From Escherichia coli (GTDB taxonomy: Bacteria; Pseudomonadota; Gammaproteobacteria; Enterobacterales; Enterobacteriaceae), in the NCBI GenBank assembly GCA_025544715.1, contig GCA_025544715.1_4109.1: 64,000 bases of DNA. One strand, written 5' to 3'. Below the pieces are notes generated by a model, which saw only the letters and a list, made by a program, of their open reading frames with translations, made no database searches and had not been told where the DNA came from. Positions 5,588 to 56,494 of the stretch are shown here, in pieces; position 1 is the first letter of the stretch, and the number at the start of each line of letters is the position of its first letter. Made by a program: the position numbers and the translations under genes.

Positions 5588-6619
5588 TTATAACGATCTG
5601 TAAATTTGGATTAGAAGATTTTTATCAAACATTGGTGAATCAATTTCCATAATTTGCTGCAAAACTATCTCATCAACTGATTCAGTACTTTCAAAACTAA
5701 CACCATCTTCGATTAATTCTGAAATACTTTGCTTGCTTGTCACAACATTAAACTCTCTAATGTTATAAAGTTTAGTAAATGTATCACGAATAAAACTAAT
5801 CTCATCAGTTGTTATTGATATATCAACTTGAACTTTTGATATTGTGTTATCTTGTAGATAATAGCTTGGATCAGTCAACAATTCAGAAAGTGTGAATGTT
5901 CTATATTTTGGTGCATTATCCCATGACTTGAAAATAGGTTCTTTGCCATGTTCAAGAATCATCACACCTCTTGCATCATCCCATGTATCGGAAAAATTAT
6001 GTGGAAAACAATTACCAGTATAAACTACACGAGTTCCTTTTGAAGTTGTTTTTGACTGTCGTTTATGAAAATGTCCACTAAAAACATACTCACATCCACC
6101 AAAAGAACCTTCTGTTTCTTTTCCATGATCAGGCATTTCTACCATCTTGTTAAGTAAGTAACCTGGTAACTCTAAGTGACCAAAAACATACTTACTTTTT
6201 AGTTGAGGTAACAACTTATATTCATCTTCAATCATAAATGGAATGAAAGTACAATCATCAAAGGTTGTAATTTCATTAATGAATTCTATATTTTCATAAA
6301 CTTGAGCCATATTGATACTTGTTATATCACGTTTGTTTTTATGATACATATCATGGTTGCCTACTAAAAAATATACTTTTTCAAAATTATCATTTAATAA
6401 TTGAAGAATTTGTAAACCATAGTTTAGTGTTTGAATATTGATATTACTTCTATTATGAAAATAATCTCCCATAAAAACACAAACTTTGATATTATTTTTT
6501 TTAGCTACATCAATCATGAATTTAATGAAGTTTAAACAATCTTCATTGTGTTGCTTGCTGTTATTCTTTAAACCTAAGTGAATATCAGTGAATGTAATTG
6601 CTTTATCAAACAGAGCCAT
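5588..6619 (-). CDS. Mre11/SbcD-like nuclease subunit (T4 gp47-like)
   Basis: Calcineurin-like phosphoesterase motifs DIHLG, GDYFH, GNHD, GHFH. Start placed at the third in-frame ATG (MALFDK...) because AAAGGAAAA RBS precedes it; the track start 6637 is an alternative. Confidence 0.9.
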   Translation of the reverse strand: MALFDKAITFTDIHLGLKNNSKQHNEDCLNFIKFMIDVAKKNNIKVCVFMGDYFHNRSNINIQTLNYGLQILQLLNDNFEKVYFLVGNHDMYHKNKRDITSINMAQVYENIEFINEITTFDDCTFIPFMIEDEYKLLPQLKSKYVFGHLELPGYLLNKMVEMPDHGKETEGSFGGCEYVFSGHFHKRQSKTTSKGTRVVYTGNCFPHNFSDTWDDARGVMILEHGKEPIFKSWDNAPKYRTFTLSELLTDPSYYLQDNTISKVQVDISITTDEISFIRDTFTKLYNIREFNVVTSKQSISELIEDGVSFESTESVDEIVLQQIMEIDSPMFDKNLLIQIYRSL

Positions 6620-7445
6620 CTTCATTTTTCCTTTCAATCATGTTCAATTCAATTTCAATTTGACGTGTATGTGATGGCGTAAAGCCATGCATTTCAAGTA
6701 AATCATCACGTATATTTCGAACATTTTTCTCACTATTCAATATAGAACGAAAACTATTGTTTACGAATGATGTATAGTAAGAGAAAGGATTTAGCTGAAC
6801 TGCTGGTTTATCTTTTTTATAAAGAATGCTCTCTTTAAAGAGAAGTGCGTTTTTAACTAATTGTATTCTTGCATCACCCATCATTTCATCTAAGTATGTA
6901 TAGTTTCTGTAATTAGATTTATGAGAGATTTCCTCAGCAAGTTTAATGAACATCTTCCCTAGTTCATTTGTAATTTTACCATGAACAGTACTGAATTCAC
7001 CAGTTTCAAGATCTCCTTTCCAATGAGAACGACATACTTCATAGAGAATTCCTTCATTATCTACAATGTAATGCTTGAATGGTTCAAAGTTAACTCTAGT
7101 GTCGGGTGGAATATGTTCATCAGTGATAACACGAATAACAACTTCATCGATTGGAACATCAGTGATAACTAAATTATTTTCATCTGCATATTCTTTAGCT
7201 TTTTTAGCACTCATACTTTCCTTTTCACGAATACTATCAAGCATTTCATTGTTTAGTCGTTTGATTCGTGCTGCTTTGGCTTTTTCAAGTAACTCAGCAG
7301 TAATTTCTGACTCATGAAAAACAATATAATCATACATACTATATGATTTGTCTAATAACCAGCAGTATGAAATCTTACTTTTTTGTATTTCACGAAGTAA
7401 ATCAGCATTATTGAGATACTTTTTACGCTTTGGCCTATTTGTCAT
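6606..7445 (-). CDS. Late-transcription sigma factor (T4 gp55-like) with a roughly 95-aa insertion
   Basis: N-terminus KYLNNADLLREIQKSK and C-terminal NPFSYYTSFVNNSFRSILNSEK resemble T4 gp55 segments (recalled); 279 aa versus 185 aa in T4; TATAAATA boxes occur upstream of late genes in the window. Confidence 0.7.
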   Translation of the reverse strand: MTNRPKRKKYLNNADLLREIQKSKISYCWLLDKSYSMYDYIVFHESEITAELLEKAKAARIKRLNNEMLDSIREKESMSAKKAKEYADENNLVITDVPIDEVVIRVITDEHIPPDTRVNFEPFKHYIVDNEGILYEVCRSHWKGDLETGEFSTVHGKITNELGKMFIKLAEEISHKSNYRNYTYLDEMMGDARIQLVKNALLFKESILYKKDKPAVQLNPFSYYTSFVNNSFRSILNSEKNVRNIRDDLLEMHGFTPSHTRQIEIELNMIERKNEDGSV

Positions 7446-47428: not shown

Positions 47429-49042
47429 ATGTATAATATAAGAACAGATATTATTGTAAATGGTGATATCAGCTATGACGGTGATCTAATAGGTAAGATT
47501 CCAGTACCTGATATTAGTTCTAAAAATAAAAATATTTTAATTCATGAAAGTGATGGTTTATATGTTCCAGATAACACTATTAACTATCAAGGTGGTACTG
47601 GTATATCAATATCCTCTAATTTAATATCTACAAAAATCAGTTCAACTGAAGGTAATATCCTTAGTAATGATTCTAACGGGTTGTATGTTCCTGATAATAC
47701 GGCAAGCTACATAGCTGGAAATGGTATCAATGTTAATACAAATGTTATATCTGCTAAAGTGAGTTTAAATTCTGGAAACATTCTGATTTCTGATACTAAT
47801 GGTCTGTATGTTCCTAATACATCAATTGTGTATTCTGAGGGAACTGGTGTAGAAATAAGTAATAATACTATTTCAGCTAAAATAAGTACATCTCCTAATA
47901 ACATAGTTACTATTGCAGAAGGTGGTTTATATGTCCCTGATAATACAGTAACATATACAGGTAGTGACAGTATTAAAATAGATAATAATATTATATCATC
48001 AAAAGTAAGCACATCTTTAGGAAATATCCTTACAACTGATAGTACGGGTCTATTCGTACCTGATAATTCGATAACGTACAATGCGGGTAATGGGATTGTA
48101 ATTAGTGATGAAGTGATTAGTGTTGAGGTTGACCCTACGCCAGAAAATATATTATCTTCTACTAGCAATGGTTTATTTGTTCCTAACAATACTGTAACTT
48201 ATAATGCTGGCAACGGAATTTCAATTAACTCTGATATAATAAGTGCTAAAATTAGTTCTACTTCTGGTAATATACTATCTACTGACAGTACTGGATTGTT
48301 TGTGCCTAATACAAGAATAAATTACGTTGGTGGTACTGGTATATCAATTAGTTCAGAAACAATTTCAACCAAAATAAGCACAACACCAGGAAATACTTTA
48401 ACAACTGACGTAAATGGGTTATATGTACCGACTGGTCCATCCTCATATACTGCTGGAAATGGTATAACTATTGACAGTAATGTTATTTCGTCTAAAATAA
48501 GTAATACCTCTGGTAATATATTAACATCAGATAGTTCTGGATTATTTGTTAATGGTAATAATACTACTAACCTAGTTCGTAGAAAAAGAGAATTATATTA
48601 TTCAAACTTAAATATACAATTCACAGATGGAATTGAACAGAATTTAATTCAAATACTTAAATCATTGACCCCCACTAGTGGAACACTAGATAGTTTCTTC
48701 AATACAACAAGTAATAAGCTAAATGTTTATAATTTCAATTCATCTCTAAATTTCAAATTAAATATATACGGTACATGGACTACTAGTTCATCTAATATGA
48801 GTTTTGCTATTAATTTTACAAATACTCAATTTAATAATATTAACCAAGTTAGAACACCAACAATCACAGTTGATACTATTTCATTTAATACATTTTTAAG
48901 TGTTGATGAAAATGGTAACCTAGTAACTAATGGAACACCTATTACGTTAATGTCACATGGTGGCAAGTTTACAGTCACTAATTTATTATTAATTGCTGAG
49001 CAAATCGTTCCACCTTCAATGAGTGGGGTTTCTGTAGTGTAA
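47429..49042 (+). CDS. Tail fibre protein with about nine 41-aa tandem repeats and a distinct C-terminal domain
   Basis: Repeat unit GLYVPDNT-x-Y-x-G-x-GI-x-I...IS-x-KIS...GNIL; N-terminus MYNIRTDI resembles that of the 40548 fibre (MYSIKTDL). Confidence 0.75.
   Translation: MYNIRTDIIVNGDISYDGDLIGKIPVPDISSKNKNILIHESDGLYVPDNTINYQGGTGISISSNLISTKISSTEGNILSNDSNGLYVPDNTASYIAGNGINVNTNVISAKVSLNSGNILISDTNGLYVPNTSIVYSEGTGVEISNNTISAKISTSPNNIVTIAEGGLYVPDNTVTYTGSDSIKIDNNIISSKVSTSLGNILTTDSTGLFVPDNSITYNAGNGIVISDEVISVEVDPTPENILSSTSNGLFVPNNTVTYNAGNGISINSDIISAKISSTSGNILSTDSTGLFVPNTRINYVGGTGISISSETISTKISTTPGNTLTTDVNGLYVPTGPSSYTAGNGITIDSNVISSKISNTSGNILTSDSSGLFVNGNNTTNLVRRKRELYYSNLNIQFTDGIEQNLIQILKSLTPTSGTLDSFFNTTSNKLNVYNFNSSLNFKLNIYGTWTTSSSNMSFAINFTNTQFNNINQVRTPTITVDTISFNTFLSVDENGNLVTNGTPITLMSHGGKFTVTNLLLIAEQIVPPSMSGVSVV
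47549..48560 (+). repeat. In-frame 123-bp (41-aa) tandem repeat array in fibre gene
   Basis: Repeated GLYVP/GLFVP-containing units seen in translation. Confidence 0.6.
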
Positions 49043-51094: not shown

Positions 51095-51125
51095 TAAAAA
51101 AGGGAGAACATTAGTTCTCCCTTTT
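51095..51125. terminator. Bidirectional rho-independent terminator
   Basis: A-run, GGGAGAAC-atta-GTTCTCCC, TTTT; between convergent stops of the fibre gene and thyA. Confidence 0.7.
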
Positions 51126-51128
51126 CGT

Positions 51129-52058
51129 TTATACAGCCATAGGTGCTTTAATTGTTGGCATTGGGTTGTAATTCACTAATTTGAAAGAATCCATTGTGAA
51201 ATCTTCAATATTAGTAATTGTAGGATCAAGCCACAATTCAGGTAATTCACGAGGTTTTCGCTGTAGTTGTTCTTTTACTTGTTCAACGTGGTTTTTATAA
51301 ATGTGACAATCACCACCATTCCAAATAAATTCACCAACATCTAAACCAGTAATTTGTGCAATCATATGAGTTAGTAGTGAGTAACTACTGATATTAAATG
51401 GAACTCCCAAAAATAGATCAGCGGAGCGTTGATGTAGAATGCAGCTTAGTTTCCCTTGTACTACACAAAATTGCACAAAGCTATGACAAGGTGGCAACGT
51501 CATATCATCAAGCTCACCAACGTTCCAGGCACTTAGAATGTGGCGACGACCATATGGATCGGAATGTATACCTTTGATTAGTTCTTGTAATTGGTCAGTT
51601 GTACGTTTCATAACAACACCATGTGAACCAGTATAATCGATAACTTTGTATCCTTTATCTTTTAATTCTTGAATTTCTTCAGTACTGGAACTAAATTTAT
51701 AATCTTCCCATTCACGCCATTGCTTACCATACACTGGACCCAATTCACCATCAGTATAACCAAGAGCAACGCCTTGATTTAGGTAATTATCTGTCCAAAT
51801 TGTTTTCTTTTCAGTATCACGAGTTCCATGCAAAATTTCACAAAGGCGACGCTCATCATGGGAACCTTCAATAAACCATAGTAATTCTGAAGTCATTGCT
51901 TTCCAAGCTAGACGTTTTGTCGTCACTGCTGGGAAACCATCGTTAAGGTCGAAACGCATTTGTTGACCGATAAGTTTGATTGTCCCAACACCAGTACGGT
52001 CAACGCTTTCTACGCCTTCATCTAGAATTTTTTGATATAGTTCTTGTAGTTGTTTCAT
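51129..52058 (-). CDS. thyA: Thymidylate synthase, ThyA type (T4 td-like); a dUMP hydroxymethylase is not excluded
   Basis: LPPCHSFVQF (catalytic Cys), RSADLFLGVPFNISSY (Asn predicts dUMP specificity), GDCHIYKNH; uninterrupted 309-aa ORF, no intron. Confidence 0.9.
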   Translation of the reverse strand: MKQLQELYQKILDEGVESVDRTGVGTIKLIGQQMRFDLNDGFPAVTTKRLAWKAMTSELLWFIEGSHDERRLCEILHGTRDTEKKTIWTDNYLNQGVALGYTDGELGPVYGKQWREWEDYKFSSSTEEIQELKDKGYKVIDYTGSHGVVMKRTTDQLQELIKGIHSDPYGRRHILSAWNVGELDDMTLPPCHSFVQFCVVQGKLSCILHQRSADLFLGVPFNISSYSLLTHMIAQITGLDVGEFIWNGGDCHIYKNHVEQVKEQLQRKPRELPELWLDPTITNIEDFTMDSFKLVNYNPMPTIKAPMAV

Positions 52059-52651
52059 TATACTTCCTTGAAAAATGTAATAAAATGTTCCATATGTTTT
52101 TCTGTGGCATTGCGTGAACCAATACCAGTCCAGTTTCCATGTGGAGGTGGAACCACGAATGATTGTTGGAACTCTTTCAGTACTGTATCGAAATAAAATA
52201 CTGAACGTGAATTCATATCATAACAATAAATTTCAGGATTTTCAACTGAATCCATATACATCTGTACTGCCCATGCAGTACCACCACTTACCTTAGTTGG
52301 TGATGTGATATTTGCAATACAATATATTCTTTCTGTATTAAGTATCTGATAACTATTCCTTGCAAGTAAGTTGTAAACATAAGAACCAGGCTTCGGTACT
52401 TTTCGCTGTAACGAGTAACATGCAATGTTTAGTTGATTTAATATAGAAATATCAGATAGAATATTGGATGGTATTTCTAATATAGTACTTTCATCTACAC
52501 TATGCTCATGACCTTTGAATGAAAAATTAATAACTTCAAATCCATTATTTTTTGCATAGATAGAAAAAAGGCGGTCAGCACCTGCTGCCCCGCCACTAAA
52601 ACATACATTAGATAAACCTTTTATTGCTTCATCTAATTCATTCTTTTTCAT
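52058..52651 (-). CDS. SLOG-fold (DprA/LOG/YpsA-like Rossmann) protein, predicted nucleotide-ligand binding
   Basis: N-terminal glycine loop FSGGAAGAD and later VSGGTAW motif; stop/start coupled to thyA. Confidence 0.55.
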   Translation of the reverse strand: MKKNELDEAIKGLSNVCFSGGAAGADRLFSIYAKNNGFEVINFSFKGHEHSVDESTILEIPSNILSDISILNQLNIACYSLQRKVPKPGSYVYNLLARNSYQILNTERIYCIANITSPTKVSGGTAWAVQMYMDSVENPEIYCYDMNSRSVFYFDTVLKEFQQSFVVPPPHGNWTGIGSRNATEKHMEHFITFFKEV

Positions 52652-52654
52652 ATT

Positions 52655-53311
52655 TTATTTTGCTTTACGTTCTGCAAATAGTTGTTTTACTTTCTCAATA
52701 GCTTTAGTCTGTGAAATACCTTCTGGAATTTCTAGATAAATTGTTTTACTATCTTTCGGTTGTTCAACAACTTGTGTTTGTGGACGCAAACTTGGCTCTA
52801 AATTATATGCACGTTCATAATGTTCTTTAGCCAGTTTTTCATATTTTTGTGCATCAGTGAGAAGTTGTTCTACAATAGTAGCTTCTTCTACTTTAGTGTC
52901 AGCTTCTTGTGGATTGAATGGGTTAAAGTCTTTTACTTTACCATCTTCTTGTACTTTTGCTTGATTTTCATCTAATGCTTTGTTTAGAACATCAAGAGAA
53001 ATTTTATTATTACCACCAGTGTGCATATCAATGTCACAAGTACGAACGCGACGTAGATGCTGCATATTGTGTAGAACATCTAGCATTTTGCGTCCATCGA
53101 GATAACCAATTTTATGCATTACTTCCCACAAATCAATATTAGATTGACCATGACCCATAACAATATCAGTTACTGCGTGAACATATGCTTCTGGTAGTGA
53201 ATCACGATAAACAATAAGGCAGTGTTCAGGATCATCTGGTAGTGAACGCCAAACAACAAAAACACGAGAACCTGTATTACGCATTACACCAACATGACGA
53301 ATAGCTGCCAT
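52655..53311 (-). CDS. Hypothetical protein (218 aa)
   Basis: ORF in the early minus-strand operon; no motif recognised. Confidence 0.6.
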   Translation of the reverse strand: MAAIRHVGVMRNTGSRVFVVWRSLPDDPEHCLIVYRDSLPEAYVHAVTDIVMGHGQSNIDLWEVMHKIGYLDGRKMLDVLHNMQHLRRVRTCDIDMHTGGNNKISLDVLNKALDENQAKVQEDGKVKDFNPFNPQEADTKVEEATIVEQLLTDAQKYEKLAKEHYERAYNLEPSLRPQTQVVEQPKDSKTIYLEIPEGISQTKAIEKVKQLFAERKAK

Positions 53312-53313
53312 AA

Positions 53314-53559
53314 TTATTCTCCTTTATCTTCTTGAGTTTCACTATCTTGTGATTCAGCTTCTTCTTTAGCTGCATCTTCTTGTGCTTTAATATCTTCAAG
53401 AGCTACATTTGCAAAAGAAACAAATTTAGATACAACTGGAGCAACCTCAACAAGTTCTTCAACTTTAAAGGTGTTTCGTGCAACAGCAGCTTCCATAATT
53501 TTTGCAGCATTGATTAGGTCTAGAAGGGTTAGTTGAATTTGATTATTTTCTTGTTCCAT
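53314..53559 (-). CDS. Small acidic protein (about 81 aa)
   Basis: Start placed at second ATG (MEQENN...) with GGAGAG RBS; C-terminus rich in E/D. Confidence 0.5.
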   Translation of the reverse strand: MEQENNQIQLTLLDLINAAKIMEAAVARNTFKVEELVEVAPVVSKFVSFANVALEDIKAQEDAAKEEAESQDSETQEDKGE

Positions 53560-53593
53560 TTTAATACTCTCCATGTATATTGGTACATTAACT

Positions 53594-53621
53594 ATTATAT
53601 CATATTTTTATAAGTTGTCCC
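53594..53621 (-). promoter_or_regulatory. Candidate early promoter (GGGACA-N16-TGATATAAT)
   Basis: Extended -10 TGATATAAT identical to the strong promoters; weaker -35. Confidence 0.35.
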
Positions 53622-53625
53622 ACTT

Positions 53626-53657
53626 ATAAAAAGAAGAGAACGGAAAATTCCGTTCTC
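53626..53657 (-). terminator. Rho-independent terminator ending the MoxR-vWA operon
   Basis: Minus-strand GAGAACGG-aatttt-CCGTTCTC followed by TTCTTTTTAT. Confidence 0.65.
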
Positions 53658-53669
53658 ATTATTTAGTAC

Positions 53670-55094
53670 TTAACTACGTTGACGCTTTTTATCAGCTTCA
53701 TATTCGTAGTGTACAGTCTCACCAAATGGTGCAACTTTATTTGGGTTACTGTGAATCACGAACAGTGTTTTACAGTAGTTTGGATCACCCCACGACTGCC
53801 ACGGTTCACCATCTGTAAACATTACAAGCTGTTTAGGCTTGTAGTTGTCGTTCTTCATATGAACCCATACTGCTTCAAAGTCAGTACCACCACCACCTTT
53901 TACTGGATATTCCAGAATCTTACGTTCTTCGCCAGTTTTGTAATCCTTTACAGTATAAACTTCAGTATCAAAAGTCATGATACGAATCTTAAACTGTTTG
54001 AATTGTTTAGTGATACCTAGAACTTCACTAATGAAATCACGAAGCATATCTTCAGAAATAGATCCAGAAGCATCTAGTGCAATCGCAATATCAATGTCAT
54101 CATCTGGTTTCATCCCTGGGTAAATTGGATTACCATAGAATGAACCATTAGAACCAAAACCTGCACCCCAAGAACGACGATTCGGATTTTGATATGTTGC
54201 ATCAGACTTCAACCAACTACGAAGTGTGCGTTGAAGTTTTGAACGCCAGTCAATCTTTGGTTCTTTAAAGTTGTTAATCATACGAGCGATTTCTGCTGGT
54301 GTACCACCTGCACGAGCAGCATTCATCATTGCTGTTTTGAAATCATCCATGTAATCACGTTTTTGTTTCTCACTTGAACCACCCTCTTGACCTTCTTGTG
54401 GAACGTCATGCTGGTCAATTGTAGTACCTTTTGGTTTACCCTTACCATCTTTAATATCGCCAAAAGTACCGCGATTTTTACCTTCACCTTCGCTACCACC
54501 ACTTTGTGGTTGACCTTCACCTTCACCATCTTCTTTTTGTTCTTCTTCTTCAAGAAGAATGTAAATCTCTTCTGCGGTCATACCTTCATATTTTTTATCA
54601 TACAACCATGAACTTTGGATTTTTCCAATTTTCTCACGAACGATGATTTGGTTAATGGCATAATCCGCTGCACGGTTATAACGTTGTGGATCACGCATAC
54701 CACGACGAAGGAAGTGATCGTAAGCACAGTGTAGAATTTCATGACAAATTACAGCAATAAGGTTTTCATCAGTCAAACCTTCAGTCATTTCTTTTAATTG
54801 TTCGTCTGTAACTTCAGGGTGCTTTTCACGAATAGCTTCTTCATATTCTTTCTTTTTAGATGGGTCTTGAATGCCCATTACAAATTCTACGTTGTAGAAT
54901 AGATGTTTACCATCCACTGCTAGAGTACGACACCATGTATTATTAGGAACTGGACGTAAACGTGAAGCGAGTACGCCAAAGAATGGTGCAGTTAACATCA
55001 AAGATGTACGAGCCAGAACCAGACGATCTTGACATTCTTTCTGAAGTGCAGGAGATACTTCATTGAATATGGAAGTAGATTTGTTATCTGACAT
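53670..55094 (-). CDS. vWA-domain protein with N-terminal HExxH metallopeptidase-like module (CobT-like partner of the MoxR ATPase)
   Basis: HEILH motif; acidic low-complexity linker EEEEQKEDGEGEGQPQSGGSEGEG; C-terminal vWA with MIDAS-like DASGS and a Gly-rich GGGGTD segment. Confidence 0.85.
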   Translation of the reverse strand: MSDNKSTSIFNEVSPALQKECQDRLVLARTSLMLTAPFFGVLASRLRPVPNNTWCRTLAVDGKHLFYNVEFVMGIQDPSKKKEYEEAIREKHPEVTDEQLKEMTEGLTDENLIAVICHEILHCAYDHFLRRGMRDPQRYNRAADYAINQIIVREKIGKIQSSWLYDKKYEGMTAEEIYILLEEEEQKEDGEGEGQPQSGGSEGEGKNRGTFGDIKDGKGKPKGTTIDQHDVPQEGQEGGSSEKQKRDYMDDFKTAMMNAARAGGTPAEIARMINNFKEPKIDWRSKLQRTLRSWLKSDATYQNPNRRSWGAGFGSNGSFYGNPIYPGMKPDDDIDIAIALDASGSISEDMLRDFISEVLGITKQFKQFKIRIMTFDTEVYTVKDYKTGEERKILEYPVKGGGGTDFEAVWVHMKNDNYKPKQLVMFTDGEPWQSWGDPNYCKTLFVIHSNPNKVAPFGETVHYEYEADKKRQRS

Positions 55095-55168
55095 GTATAT
55101 TTCCTCGTTTAGTTAAGATAAAAGAAGGATACCATTAGGCATCCTTCTTGTCAACAACTCTTTGTTAA

Positions 55169-56494
55169 TTAGCCAAGAGAGCGTGCTTTACGTACAAGTT
55201 CAGAGTACTTAGCGATGAAATCTTTAAACGCTGGTACATCTTTAATGGAAATCGCAACCTTATGAAGCGTGATGGTACGAATTGCCAGTACTGCCAGTTC
55301 TGCTTGAGTTGCAGAGAAGTTATGGTCTAGGAAGGTGATGAAGTTGTTACACAGTTTACCCCATTCTTCCACTGGTAGACGTTGTTCTTGCTTCTCATTG
55401 AACAGGTCGATAATTTTATAAACCAAGTTCAGAGTGATAAAGTAGTTCGCAGAAATATCCAGCGTTGCGTCGATTTCTTTGATTTCACCAGACAGAATAG
55501 ACATAGTATCTGGTAGTTTAGCAACGTTCTCAACGTACTCAATGTATTCAGTCGCAACACCTTCACCAACACGACCAGCAATCATTGCACGGAACACTTC
55601 TTTATCAATTGTCTTATTTTTCTTGAGATCTTCGTAGCGTGCTACTGCTTCCCATGAACGTGGAGAAGTACCACCGCTGTGAGAAGGATCTTGTGGGCTA
55701 AGTGTGTTAAAGTACTTAGAACCAGTGTTGTTGATGAACGCAACAGTTGCTGGGTTCAAACGTTTTGCAATCGCATAATCGTTAATCCAATCTTGATGAT
55801 AAGGAATCATCTCAATGTGAGTCATACGGTCACGCAGTGGTGTAGCAAGAGAGAACGTTACACCGCCATCAGTTTCACGGTTACCTGCTGCAAGAATCAG
55901 TGCAGTCTTAGGTAGCTTCATCTCACCAACACAACGGTCGAGGATTAGCTGATAAGACGCTGCCTGAACAATAGGCATTGCAGAGTTAATTTCGTCAAAC
56001 AGAATAACACCTTTCCAATCTTCGGACAATTTCAGTACTTTAGGTGCAGCCCATACTACCGCTGTTTCAGCTACATAATCTTTTGCTTCGGCAAGCTCAG
56101 ATTCTTTCAGAAGAGAACCGTCAGTTTTACGGAAAAGCTTCTCTGGAACTGGAATACCGCGAAGGTCACTTGGTTCAATTTGAGACAAACGGAAATCGAT
56201 AAAGTTAGTATCTTGGTCGATTAGTTTTGCTTCAAATGCAGCCAGTTCACGGCGTAGCTGATCAGCATTTTCAGGGTCAGCTTCGATTTGTTGTTTCATG
56301 AACTCGATTTTAGCTACGTTATCTTTACGCAGTGGGTAATTTTCATCAGCATATTGACGAGCGATAGCAGACTTACCGATACCTGGGCTACCCCAAATCA
56401 TCAGGCTATCTTGAATCATGTCAGCCAGTGCCATTGCTTCTTTAGCTTTCTTTGGAGTCAGTTTAACGTTCAGGATATCGTTTTGAGTAGTCAT
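55169..56494 (-). CDS. MoxR/CobS-type AAA+ ATPase (AAA_5-like)
   Basis: Walker A GSPGIGKS, Walker B ILFDEIN, single AAA module. Confidence 0.85.
   Translation of the reverse strand: MTTQNDILNVKLTPKKAKEAMALADMIQDSLMIWGSPGIGKSAIARQYADENYPLRKDNVAKIEFMKQQIEADPENADQLRRELAAFEAKLIDQDTNFIDFRLSQIEPSDLRGIPVPEKLFRKTDGSLLKESELAEAKDYVAETAVVWAAPKVLKLSEDWKGVILFDEINSAMPIVQAASYQLILDRCVGEMKLPKTALILAAGNRETDGGVTFSLATPLRDRMTHIEMIPYHQDWINDYAIAKRLNPATVAFINNTGSKYFNTLSPQDPSHSGGTSPRSWEAVARYEDLKKNKTIDKEVFRAMIAGRVGEGVATEYIEYVENVAKLPDTMSILSGEIKEIDATLDISANYFITLNLVYKIIDLFNEKQEQRLPVEEWGKLCNNFITFLDHNFSATQAELAVLAIRTITLHKVAISIKDVPAFKDFIAKYSELVRKARSLG

Follow-up and report, generated by a model that had tools for sequence, protein, structure and literature searches.

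A circularly permuted SLOG domain encoded next to thymidylate synthase in a jumbo coliphage, with a tentative role in DNA-precursor metabolism

The protein studied here can be compared with several described members of the SLOG superfamily. Among the closest is the 'putative molybdenum carrier protein' of Syntrophus aciditrophicus (PDB 3imk), which we take to be a member of cpYpsA (PF12694, 'Circularly permutated YpsA SLOG family'). The others are DprA/Smf (PF02481), YpsA/YAcAr (PF06908, PF10686) and the LOG/PpnN nucleotide 5′-monophosphate N-glycosidases (PF03641). Two DprA motifs, G-S/T/A-R and F/L/Y-x-x-R-N/D, were defined by Wang et al. 2014 (PMC3950713), and the second of them was mutated in H. 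pylori DprA, in which the homologous motifs surround one base and contact phosphate (PMC3950713). The same paper quotes PGGxGTxxE as the LOG motif. A GxD/E signature has been described for the YpsA-like clade (PMC6459960). According to Iyer et al. 2022, this clade is the main SLOG type in viruses and is present in 31 % of jumbo phages, and a role in NAD+ signalling was predicted for it.

The window, a stretch of 64,000 nt, derives from an Asteriusvirus (121Q/PBECO4-like jumbo coliphage, 98.6 % identity), and the features of interest are collected in Table 1. The initial annotation described a SLOG-fold protein translationally coupled to a ThyA-family gene. Both ORFs were confirmed on the minus strand, and the identity of the ThyA-family neighbour in the same operon was verified by PF00303 and NF002497. 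The two quoted motifs, FSGGAAGAD (residues 18-26) and GGT (residues 123-125), are present and consist largely of residues invariant across 43 homologues, and the assignment to the SLOG superfamily was borne out by a structural match and by the nucleotide-contact loops. In the suggested HMM search against SLOG profiles, YAcAr (PF10686) scored 20.2 bits, below its gathering threshold of 28.2, and aligned only to residues 6-44 containing the glycine loop, while PF12694 (gathering 26.2 bits; nothing at E up to 1) and PF02481 (gathering 29.6 bits) did not match the 197-aa protein.

Table 1. Features of the SLOG-thyA region, numbered by position in the window
Feature	Position	Strand	Remark
Terminator-like hairpin, 13-bp stem and T run	51097..51126	minus	between thyA and convergent tail-fibre gene
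thyA, canonical thymidylate synthase, 309 aa	51129..52058	minus	~45-aa insert in small domain
SLOG/thyA junction, AAGGAAG then TAATG	52056..52069	minus	1-nt stop/start overlap
197-aa SLOG-fold ORF, 121Q gp567 homologue	52058..52651	minus	circularly permuted DprA/YpsA-clade domain
G176-I-G-S-R180, DprA G-S/T/A-R motif	52112..52126	minus	last strand, not first
Loop and helix S122-GGTAWAV-Q130	52262..52288	minus	G123, G124, T125, A128 invariant
Helix L95-L-A-R98-N99-S-Y-Q102	52346..52369	minus	fits DprA motif F/L/Y-x-x-R-N/D
Glycine loop S19-GGAAGA-D26	52574..52597	minus	contains GxD signature of YpsA-like clade
218-aa protein	52655..53311	minus	PHROG_15894; stop 3 nt ahead of SLOG start
86-aa protein, first of apparent four-gene unit	53314..53574	minus	PHROG_13789; stop 2 nt ahead of 218-aa gene
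Promoter-like GGGACA-16-TATAAT with TG	53594..53657	minus	consensus match only; upstream limit of four-gene unit

The SLOG domain of the 197-aa protein stands alone and belongs to the YpsA/DprA clade. It was structurally confirmed to have the Rossmannoid three-layer alpha/beta fold of LOG, DprA, YpsA and the Moco carrier protein, and the glycine-rich nucleotide-contact loops of SLOG proteins (GGxxGxD, GGT) follow the core strands. The signature of the YpsA-like clade corresponds to G24-A25-D26, with D26 invariant (n=128). The motifs of the family come in the order SGGAxGAD ... RN ... GGT ... GIGSR. The G-S-R strand, which is N-terminal in DprA, is thus relocated to the C-terminus in the phage protein, and therefore the SLOG domain is circularly permuted. 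This shift of the first core strand is shared with cpYpsA and distinguishes the protein from YpsA/YAcAr. Relative to 3imk/cpYpsA, the phage protein carries an extra beta-hairpin (~141-164) and a helical insert (~45-90). Both DprA signatures are found in it (G178-S179-R180, permuted, and L95-L-A-R98-N99), but unlike DprA it has neither a SAM domain nor a C-terminal winged-helix domain. The catalytic PGGxGTxxE of LOG/PpnN is missing. When aligned by hand on the GG pair, S122-GGTAWAV-Q130 occupies its position, and the family has Gln, rarely Glu, in place of the LOG Glu.

No Pfam model captures the family at threshold. Weak YAcAr matches were obtained for 20 of the 43 relatives (best E-value 1.3e-4), and PF02481 weakly matched 7 of the 43, and the best-scoring relative, P0265, attained 26 bits over 130 residues. 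Against PF12694, P0265 and another relative, P0278, reached 19.5 and 17.5 bits, weak matches that speak for the permutation. Scans of the 197-aa protein with NCBIfam and PADLOC gave zero matches. Searches of PDB sequences with the native-order profiles recovered no SLOG protein: profile A1 (43 sequences) had a chance epimerase match alone and profile A2 (128 sequences) had none. When the G-S-R strand and its helix were placed N-terminally, the re-permuted profile matched DprA 3uqz across the junction, at a marginal E of 0.012, aligning GIGSR-helix-SGGAxGAD to VGSR-helix-SGLAKGID of DprA. Besides a weaker epimerase match shared with the native profile, only DprAs were recovered, and 3imk was found by none of the profiles. 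Re-permutation of single sequences changed the Pfam results little (YAcAr 20.3 bits versus 20.2 native, and one insignificant DprA match). With hhalign, the native and re-permuted profiles aligned to E. coli Smf at isolated motifs only (~0.1 % probability), and the same was seen with a 12-sequence enterobacterial DprA profile (~0.1 %), which is narrow, its DprAs being at least 70 % identical.

Across the 43 homologues, which reach down to 25 % identity, S19, G20, G21, A22, G24 and D26 are invariant in the N-terminal half, R98, Q102, G123, G124, T125 and A128 in the middle, and G176, I177, G178 and R180 at the C-terminus. G20, D26, R98, G124, T125 and G178 are still invariant in 128 more diverse members, with conservation of 90 % or more at L95, N99 and Q102 in the family alignments. 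Because they persist across the 43 and 128 homologues, the motifs are not chance features.

The TAA stop of the SLOG gene (52060-52058) and the ATG of thyA (52058-52056) have one base in common, and a Shine-Dalgarno-like AAGGAAG run lies at 52069-52063. Since the stop and start overlap, the two genes are probably translationally coupled. Together with the genes for the 86-aa and 218-aa proteins they appear to form a four-gene unit, ahead of which a terminator-like hairpin precedes the promoter-like site within the same interval (consensus match only). A homologue of the 218-aa protein lies upstream of SLOG in all 18 of 18 Rak2-like loci, and in phAPEC6 virions yielded 1 peptide of this homologue, gp262c (PMC7247149). 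Near the SLOG-thyA operon the T4 late-promoter motif TATAAATA is absent, and its count in the window is below chance expectation. The SLOG gene is located among virion-morphogenesis genes.

Judged from its sequence, the thyA product is a canonical dUMP-to-dTMP enzyme. It covers the whole PF00303 profile (E 3.4e-101), scores 340.8 bits against the NCBIfam equivalog NF002497 (cut-off 327) and is 53 % identical to E. coli ThyA. The E. coli residues R21, E58, W80, Y94, R126/127, C146, R166, D169, N177, H207 and Y209 are all retained; in phage numbering they include R21, R171/R172, C191, R211, N222, H252 and Y254. The C-terminal residues are KAPMAV, compared with KAPVAI in E. coli. In dCMP hydroxymethylases an Asp, which confers cytosine specificity, stands where thymidylate synthase has Asn177. 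The thyA product does not fit an enzyme of this type, similar to T4 gp42, as it keeps Asn222 and has no Asp there. ThyA was detected with 3 peptides in phAPEC6 virions and was not detected in CBB virions, and because of this disagreement we take its packaging as unconfirmed.

The SLOG family comprises ~2,700 clusters at 50 % identity and is almost exclusively viral, unlike DprA/Smf. A scan of a genome collection with profile A1 revealed at least 13 bacterial loci, which is a lower bound because a single narrow peptide pattern was used. Adjacency to ThyA is restricted to the Rak2-like jumbo phages, one of 12 sequence clusters, and direct overlap of the two genes to 121Q-type phages, with the same junction in 121Q itself (L002). 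RaK2 has a 2-nt gap, and in 16 of the 18 Rak2-like loci the spacer measures 235-330 bp, usually with another small ORF inside. No ThyA was present within 6 kb of 62 more distant viral SLOG homologues, and a scan of the 114 neighbour representatives, from genes up to three away from SLOG, showed no ThyX family.

A different partner is seen outside the Rak2-like phages. The SLOG gene directly adjoins a DNMK-family kinase (PF21448; PHROG_139, E 1e-48) in 33-34 of 54 non-Rak2 viral loci, and a dNMP kinase lies within four genes in 38 of the 54. The two genes usually overlap by 4 nt, and their pairing, found in 5 of the 12 sequence clusters, survives rearrangement, with the gene order reversed in two loci (L020 and L050). 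We found no dNMP kinase gene in the 64,000-nt window. Rak2-like phages encode the same type of kinase ~15 kb upstream of SLOG, and it would therefore fall outside the window. The link to nucleotide metabolism proposed in the initial annotation thus gains independent support, because dNMP kinase is the commonest SLOG neighbour elsewhere. In one relative the domain is joined to a histidine phosphatase, and fusions of viral SLOG domains to guanylate kinase are reported in published surveys (PMC9503650).

Our preferred reading, held tentatively at a probability of about 0.35, is that the SLOG protein binds a deoxynucleoside-5′-phosphate unit within DNA-precursor metabolism, with DprA-like binding of ssDNA as a close rival. 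The four loops (SGGAxGAD, LxxRN..Q, SGGT and GxGSR) would form one small pocket holding a single nucleotide, i.e. a base with its 5′-phosphate, and the likeliest ligand would be a free deoxynucleoside 5′-monophosphate. A small ligand fits better than an extended DNA-binding surface, because only three basic positions (R83, R98 and R180) are conserved throughout the family and the pI of the protein is 5.95, although with a family median of 7.7 the pI is not decisive between DNA and small-ligand binding. The protein would be an accessory, probably non-catalytic, to the phage dNMP-to-dNTP supply line, where it may hand over, buffer or sense dNMPs for dNMP kinase and ThyA. Its pairing with ThyA in one operon would be derived, and dNMP kinase, which is by far the more frequent partner, would be the ancestral one. 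The protein would play no part in the synthesis of modified bases. To our knowledge, no phage is known to use a non-catalytic dNMP binder in its nucleotide metabolism. Other points count against this reading. Overlapping genes are frequent in phages and by themselves prove nothing, and the adjacency of SLOG and dNMP kinase could be a conserved gene order of T4-like phages, which is conceivable because the SLOG neighbours in these phages are T4-type structural genes.

A DprA-like function is nearly as probable. The G-S-R and LxxRN pocket would bind ssDNA, and the protein would serve as a mediator or protector for UvsX/RecA-type recombination or for entering DNA, next to a thyA or dNMP kinase gene that is merely a co-transcribed DNA-metabolism gene. 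DprA-like is the present PHROG/RefSeq label of the family. Its best-conserved features are the two DprA signature motifs, for which binding of ssDNA was demonstrated in DprA and which in this respect speak against the dNMP reading. The weak PF02481 matches and the PDB matches of the re-permuted profile point in the direction of DprA as well. Several contexts indicate DNA rather than nucleotides, again contrary to the dNMP reading. In the N4-like phage Pylas the SLOG domain is inserted in the gene annotated as virion RNA polymerase, and the N4 virion RNA polymerase transcribes single-stranded templates. A family match lies inside a protein named 'DNA 3′-5′ helicase', and a WYL regulator and topA adjoin SLOG in Flavobacteriaceae. 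In Cr30, SLOG directly follows the recombination nuclease genes gp47/gp46 and precedes peptide deformylase, which can be compared with E. coli dprA, a neighbour of def and of the topoisomerase-like yrdD. Moreover, an additional ssDNA-binding role in jumbo phages was proposed for DprA-type SLOG proteins by Iyer et al. 2021, and uvsX and uvsW, but not uvsY, are among the genes named in the CBB paper.

We regard as improbable that the protein acts in counter-defence, where it would sense, sequester or cleave an immune signal made from NAD+ (cADPR-type, Thoeris-like) or a nucleotide second messenger of another kind. This idea, raised in the initial annotation too, agrees with what has been predicted for SLOG domains of viruses (PMC9503650), and in one relative, a multidomain protein of 2,942 aa, SLOG stands beside a NADAR domain. 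However, the NAD+/ADPr prediction for YpsA-like viral SLOG rests on associations with Macro and NADAR, which the present family mostly lacks, and the 114 neighbour clusters tested contained no gene for Macro, Nudix, TIR or NADAR. The location of the gene among those for virion morphogenesis is consistent with such a role, as is the fact that an N4-like phage and several crAss-like ones have the domain embedded in giant proteins; carriage within the N4-like virion RNA polymerase, if packaged, would deliver SLOG at the very start of infection. On the other side, PADLOC did not recognise the protein, the best 60 structural neighbours listed contain no ThsA-type SLOG domain, the seven known sponge families (2026 listing) include no SLOG protein, and SLOG is mostly stand-alone and adjoins a housekeeping kinase.

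We give little credence to a joint reading, in which the family would be a circularly permuted module of DprA type, specific to viruses, and its one-nucleotide pocket would connect DNA-precursor enzymes to DNA. In one version, SLOG would hold dNMP kinase and ThyA on ssDNA where replication or recombination takes place, with a parallel in T4 gp32, for which an organising role in a dNTP-synthetase complex was once proposed. In the other, it would be a new dNMP-directed enzyme or sensor. On this joint reading SLOG would also enter with the virion in some phages, because it is part of the annotated N4-like virion RNA polymerase and of giant crAss-like proteins and because ThyA occurred in phAPEC6 particles. 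The idea of the initial annotation that SLOG and the ThyA-family enzyme jointly produce or process a modified pyrimidine for phage DNA draws only on the gene overlap and on the general observation that hydroxymethylases occur among ThyA homologues, and it is unsupported and highly improbable, since ThyA is canonical (above the equivalog cut-off, with Asn222, the catalytic Cys and the C-terminal KAPMAV) and the pairing is limited to one lineage, where another ORF mostly interrupts it. Only methyltransferases are reported in the published genomes of related phages, and in CBB no gene for the synthesis of glycosylated hydroxymethyl-cytosine.

For the window, this means that nothing points to an unusual base in the DNA and that thyA is ordinary. 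For the family, two labels compete, the DprA-like recombination mediator of the annotation and the NAD+/ADPr signal processing of the comparative-genomics papers, and the strong linkage to dNMP kinase supports a third reading. The identity of the SLOG ligand would assign a function to the family, including all Rak2-like jumbo phage records examined, and it would also explain why N4-like and crAss-like phages carry the domain inside giant proteins.

The 197-aa SLOG protein and the adjacent ThyA are encoded in phage DNA. The 4-kb stretch around their genes shares 98.6 % identity with four Escherichia phages (vB_EcoM_E9.1, 121Q, G17, Sharanji) and 97 % with PBECO4, and because of this identity to 121Q/PBECO4-type phages the source of the window can be assigned to Asteriusvirus, a Rak2-like jumbo myovirus of ~350 kb. 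The counterparts in 121Q are gp567, labelled 'DprA-like DNA recombination-mediator protein' in RefSeq, and gp568 (thymidylate synthase). Both genes are located within the virion-morphogenesis region. Tail-fibre genes converge on them from one side, and on the other side, on the strand of SLOG, are a MoxR-type ATPase, a DUF2201/VWA protein, and tail-tube and head-completion genes. The DUF2201_N/VWA and MoxR pair is kept in nearly all Rak2-like loci; the RefSeq label 'HNH endonuclease' on the former protein looks wrong. A 537-aa ORF, presumably a tail-fibre or whisker repeat protein, consists mostly of about a dozen tandem ~37-aa units (…GNILSxDSNGLYVPDNTxxYxxGxGIxIxxNxISxKxS…).

Features of the window and of loci (L-numbers) carrying SLOG homologues
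Feature	Sequence	Coordinates	Remarks
537-aa repeat ORF	window	47429-49042 (+)	
Strong hairpin with T run	window	51097-51126	3′ of thyA
thyA, 309 aa	window	51129-52058 (-)	
SLOG/thyA junction	window		AAGGAAG-TATA-ATG; final A of TAA stop doubles as A of ATG
SLOG gene, 197 aa	window	52058-52651 (-)	
218-aa gene	window	52655-53311	upstream of SLOG, preceded by 86-aa gene; gaps 2 and 3 nt
Promoter-like site and hairpin	window	53594-53657	upstream boundary
DUF2201_N metallopeptidase-like + VWA protein (474 aa) and MoxR-type AAA ATPase (441 aa)	window	53670-56494	same strand as SLOG, upstream
MoxR ATPase	window	55169-56494	
SLOG gene of phAPEC6	L098, MK817115.1	5059-5652 (counterpart of window 52058-52651)	
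PHROG_22463 ORF	L005, L007-L010, L013-L015, L018, L028	about 6590-6950	
SLOG domain of Klebsiella phage Pylas	L083, NC_049444	6001-6525	
SLOG-containing protein of phage cr109_1	L084, NC_055892	1-5786	
Flavobacterium, Myroides, Paenimyroides chromosomal loci	L085, L088-L095		

Both ORFs were found where the initial annotation had placed them. The simplest reading of the layout is a four-gene transcription unit (86 aa, 218 aa, SLOG, thyA), and the TAA/ATG overlap would fit translational coupling, short of proving it.

The proposed SLOG fold was borne out. The only notable Pfam match was YAcAr (PF10686, a SLOG family), covering the glycine loop alone with 20.2 bits, below the 28.2-bit cut-off, and NCBIfam and PADLOC scans of the protein gave no match. 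PHROG_768 ('DprA-like') matched with E 1e-26. The AlphaFold2 model built from 43 homologues was very confident (pLDDT 96.9, pTM 0.92), and its sole significant Foldseek match was 3imk, a 'putative molybdenum carrier protein' from Syntrophus aciditrophicus.

The order of the motifs is unusual. In DprA, YpsA and YAcAr the first strand, ending in G-S/G-R, comes ahead of the strand ending in SGxAxGxD, whereas the phage protein has SGGAAGAD (19-26), LLARN..Q (95-102), SGGT (122-125) and GIGSR (176-180), the latter on its last strand; all four are invariant or nearly so across homologues. Native-order family profiles matched no SLOG sequence in PDB. When the C-terminal strand and helix were put first, the profile matched DprA of S. 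pneumoniae (E 0.012) and H. pylori (E 0.7), both marginal values, and the alignment crossed the artificial junction uninterrupted (GIGSR-helix-SGGAxGAD versus VGSR-helix-SGLAKGID). Two relatives gave weak matches to Pfam cpYpsA ('circularly permutated YpsA SLOG family'). Re-permuted single sequences gained nothing in Pfam searches, and a narrow DprA profile from enterobacteria was not matched by hhalign. Circular permutation of the family thus has good support from the order of the motifs and from the match to 3imk, and only weak support from sequence statistics.

Wang et al. 2014 (PMC3950713) characterised the ssDNA-binding domain of DprA by two signature motifs, G-S/T/A-R (Arg52) and F/L/Y-x-x-R-N/D (Phe140, Arg143, Asn144), whose residues in the complex form a small pocket where one thymine inserts and the phosphates are held. 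The phage family carries both motifs, G178-S-R180 and L95-x-x-R98-N99. Unlike LOG proteins, it lacks the catalytic motif PGGxGTxxE, with Gln130 at the equivalent position in a hand alignment. Only three basic positions are conserved family-wide; the pI is 5.95 (mildly acidic) for the 197-aa protein, with a family median of 7.7. From these features, what DprA and the phage family appear to share is a one-nucleotide pocket, compatible with a free or a strand-borne nucleotide alike.

The neighbour is indeed a ThyA-family enzyme. Pfam Thymidylat_synt matched it end to end (E 3e-101), it scored above the NCBI thymidylate-synthase equivalog cut-off, and it is 53 % identical to E. coli ThyA. All residues checked are kept (E. 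coli numbering: R21, E58, W80, Y94, R126/R127, C146, H147, Q165, R166, S167, D169, N177, H207, Y209), and the C-termini read ...KAPMAV in the phage and ...KAPVAI in E. coli. The small domain carries an insert of ~45 aa, at a place where some bacterial enzymes also have one. Asparagine at the N177 position specifies uracil; with its counterpart Asn222 and all the checked residues kept, nothing points to a hydroxymethylase. In the genome papers on related phages, DNA methyltransferases are the only such genes named, and no glucosyl-hydroxymethyl-cytosine genes are reported for CBB. The joint role in base modification suggested initially is very improbable.

Mass spectrometry of phAPEC6 virions reported thymidylate synthase as virion-associated (3 peptides), together with a 25-kDa homologue of the 218-aa protein (1 peptide) and the MoxR ATPase (6 peptides) (PMC7247149). 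The equivalent genes CBB_216-223 were not detected in the CBB virion proteome. The virion ThyA of phAPEC6 recalls old, disputed reports in which T4 thymidylate synthase is said to be a baseplate component. In GenBank the phAPEC6 SLOG gene is split between gp260c (65 aa) and gp261c (45 aa), although its 197-aa ORF is intact, with no frameshift; if the search used this annotation, the full SLOG protein could not have been found.

The pairing with thyA does not extend to the family at large. Among 80 viral loci encoding SLOG homologues, thyA lies 3′ of SLOG only in 18 Rak2-like jumbo-phage loci, which make up a single cluster of the 12 obtained from the sequences at 50 % identity. The overlap seen in the window occurs only in 121Q-type phages of this clade; the gap is 2 nt in RaK2 and 235-330 bp in the other 16 loci, ten of which have a called ORF of 90-120 aa in it (e.g. 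CBB gp222). A small acidic coiled-coil-like ORF (PHROG_22463, 87-122 aa), situated between SLOG and thyA and overlapping the latter, is present in most Rak2-like phages and absent from 121Q-type phages and RaK2. The 'coupling' is thus recent and local.

A different partner recurs in the other loci, where the SLOG protein shares 32-41 % identity with the query. Deoxynucleoside monophosphate (dNMP) kinase (Pfam DNMK E 3e-14; PHROG_139 E 1e-48) is encoded directly upstream of SLOG in 33 of them and at most four genes away in 38, with a 4-nt overlap in about 20 of the 33. The pairing spans five of the 12 clusters and is kept despite changed flanking genes and even with reversed gene order (e.g. 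L020, L050). Among phages in culture, Atu_ph07 of Agrobacterium and Phosso of Sinorhizobium have it. Rak2-like phages (XbC2, 7t3) have the same kinase type ~15 kb upstream of SLOG; no dNMP kinase was found within the window, which agrees with such a position falling beyond its edge. When 114 other neighbour families were scanned with Pfam, T4-type structural genes and scattered single enzymes came up, and none of Macro, NADAR, Nudix, TIR, ThyX or deaminase was a recurrent partner.

In an exhaustive HMMER search, 2,669 cluster representatives had E ≤ 1e-3, of which 1,942 reached E ≤ 1e-10; most are stand-alone proteins of 175-210 aa, and the relatives listed had no precomputed Pfam domains. Seven homologues of ~300 aa (P0083, P0088, P0092, P0095, P0144, P0145, P0169) share a conserved ~110-aa C-terminal extension, and a Pfam scan of two of them (P0083, P0144) gave no match. 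Fusions include a 2,942-aa relative with SLOG followed by NADAR and a 368-aa one with an N-terminal histidine phosphatase. Klebsiella phage Pylas (N4-like) has an intact domain with all four motifs at roughly residues 975-1175 of a 3,820-aa product annotated as virion RNA polymerase. In crAss-like phage cr109_1 an intact domain lies C-terminally in a 4,328-aa protein whose gene has 23 TAG codons in frame within the 5.8 kb examined; TAG is therefore recoded in this phage. Foldseek against viral models added cr130_1, cr272_1 and a protein named 'DNA 3′-5′ helicase'.

In T4-like Caulobacter phage Cr30, SLOG follows gp47/gp46 and precedes peptide deformylase. Bacterial copies are very few (at least 13 loci in 185,579 species, as searched with a narrow pattern), and 11 of the 13 occupy a fixed chromosomal locus in Flavobacteriaceae, ordered miaB (divergent), SLOG, WYL+WCX transcription regulator and topA in the nine with flanking DNA. 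Canonical E. coli dprA (L100) adjoins def and topoisomerase-like yrdD, a suggestive parallel to both neighbourhoods; the permuted protein might stand in for DprA in these Flavobacteriaceae.

We tentatively favour, at roughly one chance in three, a putative binder, less likely an enzyme, of free dNMPs, which would act alongside dNMP kinase and ThyA. This accounts for the dominant linkage to the kinase and for that to ThyA, as well as for the fusion to a phosphatase and the guanylate-kinase fusions that Iyer et al. 2022 (PMC9503650) pointed out. Close behind comes a putative DprA-like ssDNA binder or recombination mediator, a tentative alternative to which the identity of the DprA motifs, several of the contexts (helicase, polymerase, recombination nuclease, topA) and the 'DprA-like' annotation now in use all point. 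The dNMP binder is placed slightly ahead for two reasons: it explains the only association seen repeatedly in many lineages, and fusions to DNA enzymes can also be explained by a sensor of small ligands. Viral YpsA-like SLOG domains have been predicted to handle NAD+-derived immune signals (PMC9503650), and a putative sensor, sponge or hydrolase of such signals would suit the NADAR fusion and the domains within giant, possibly injected, proteins; with support in this family limited to these two observations, we consider it unlikely, ranking third ahead of base modification.

PHROGs, RefSeq and two comparative-genomics papers (PMC7824862, PMC9503650) already cover the fold and clade of the protein, how abundant the clade is in jumbo phages, and the 'DprA-like' label. 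The permutation of the family, the dNMP kinase as its recurrent partner and the SLOG domain built into an annotated N4-like virion RNA polymerase have no prior statement in the literature consulted.
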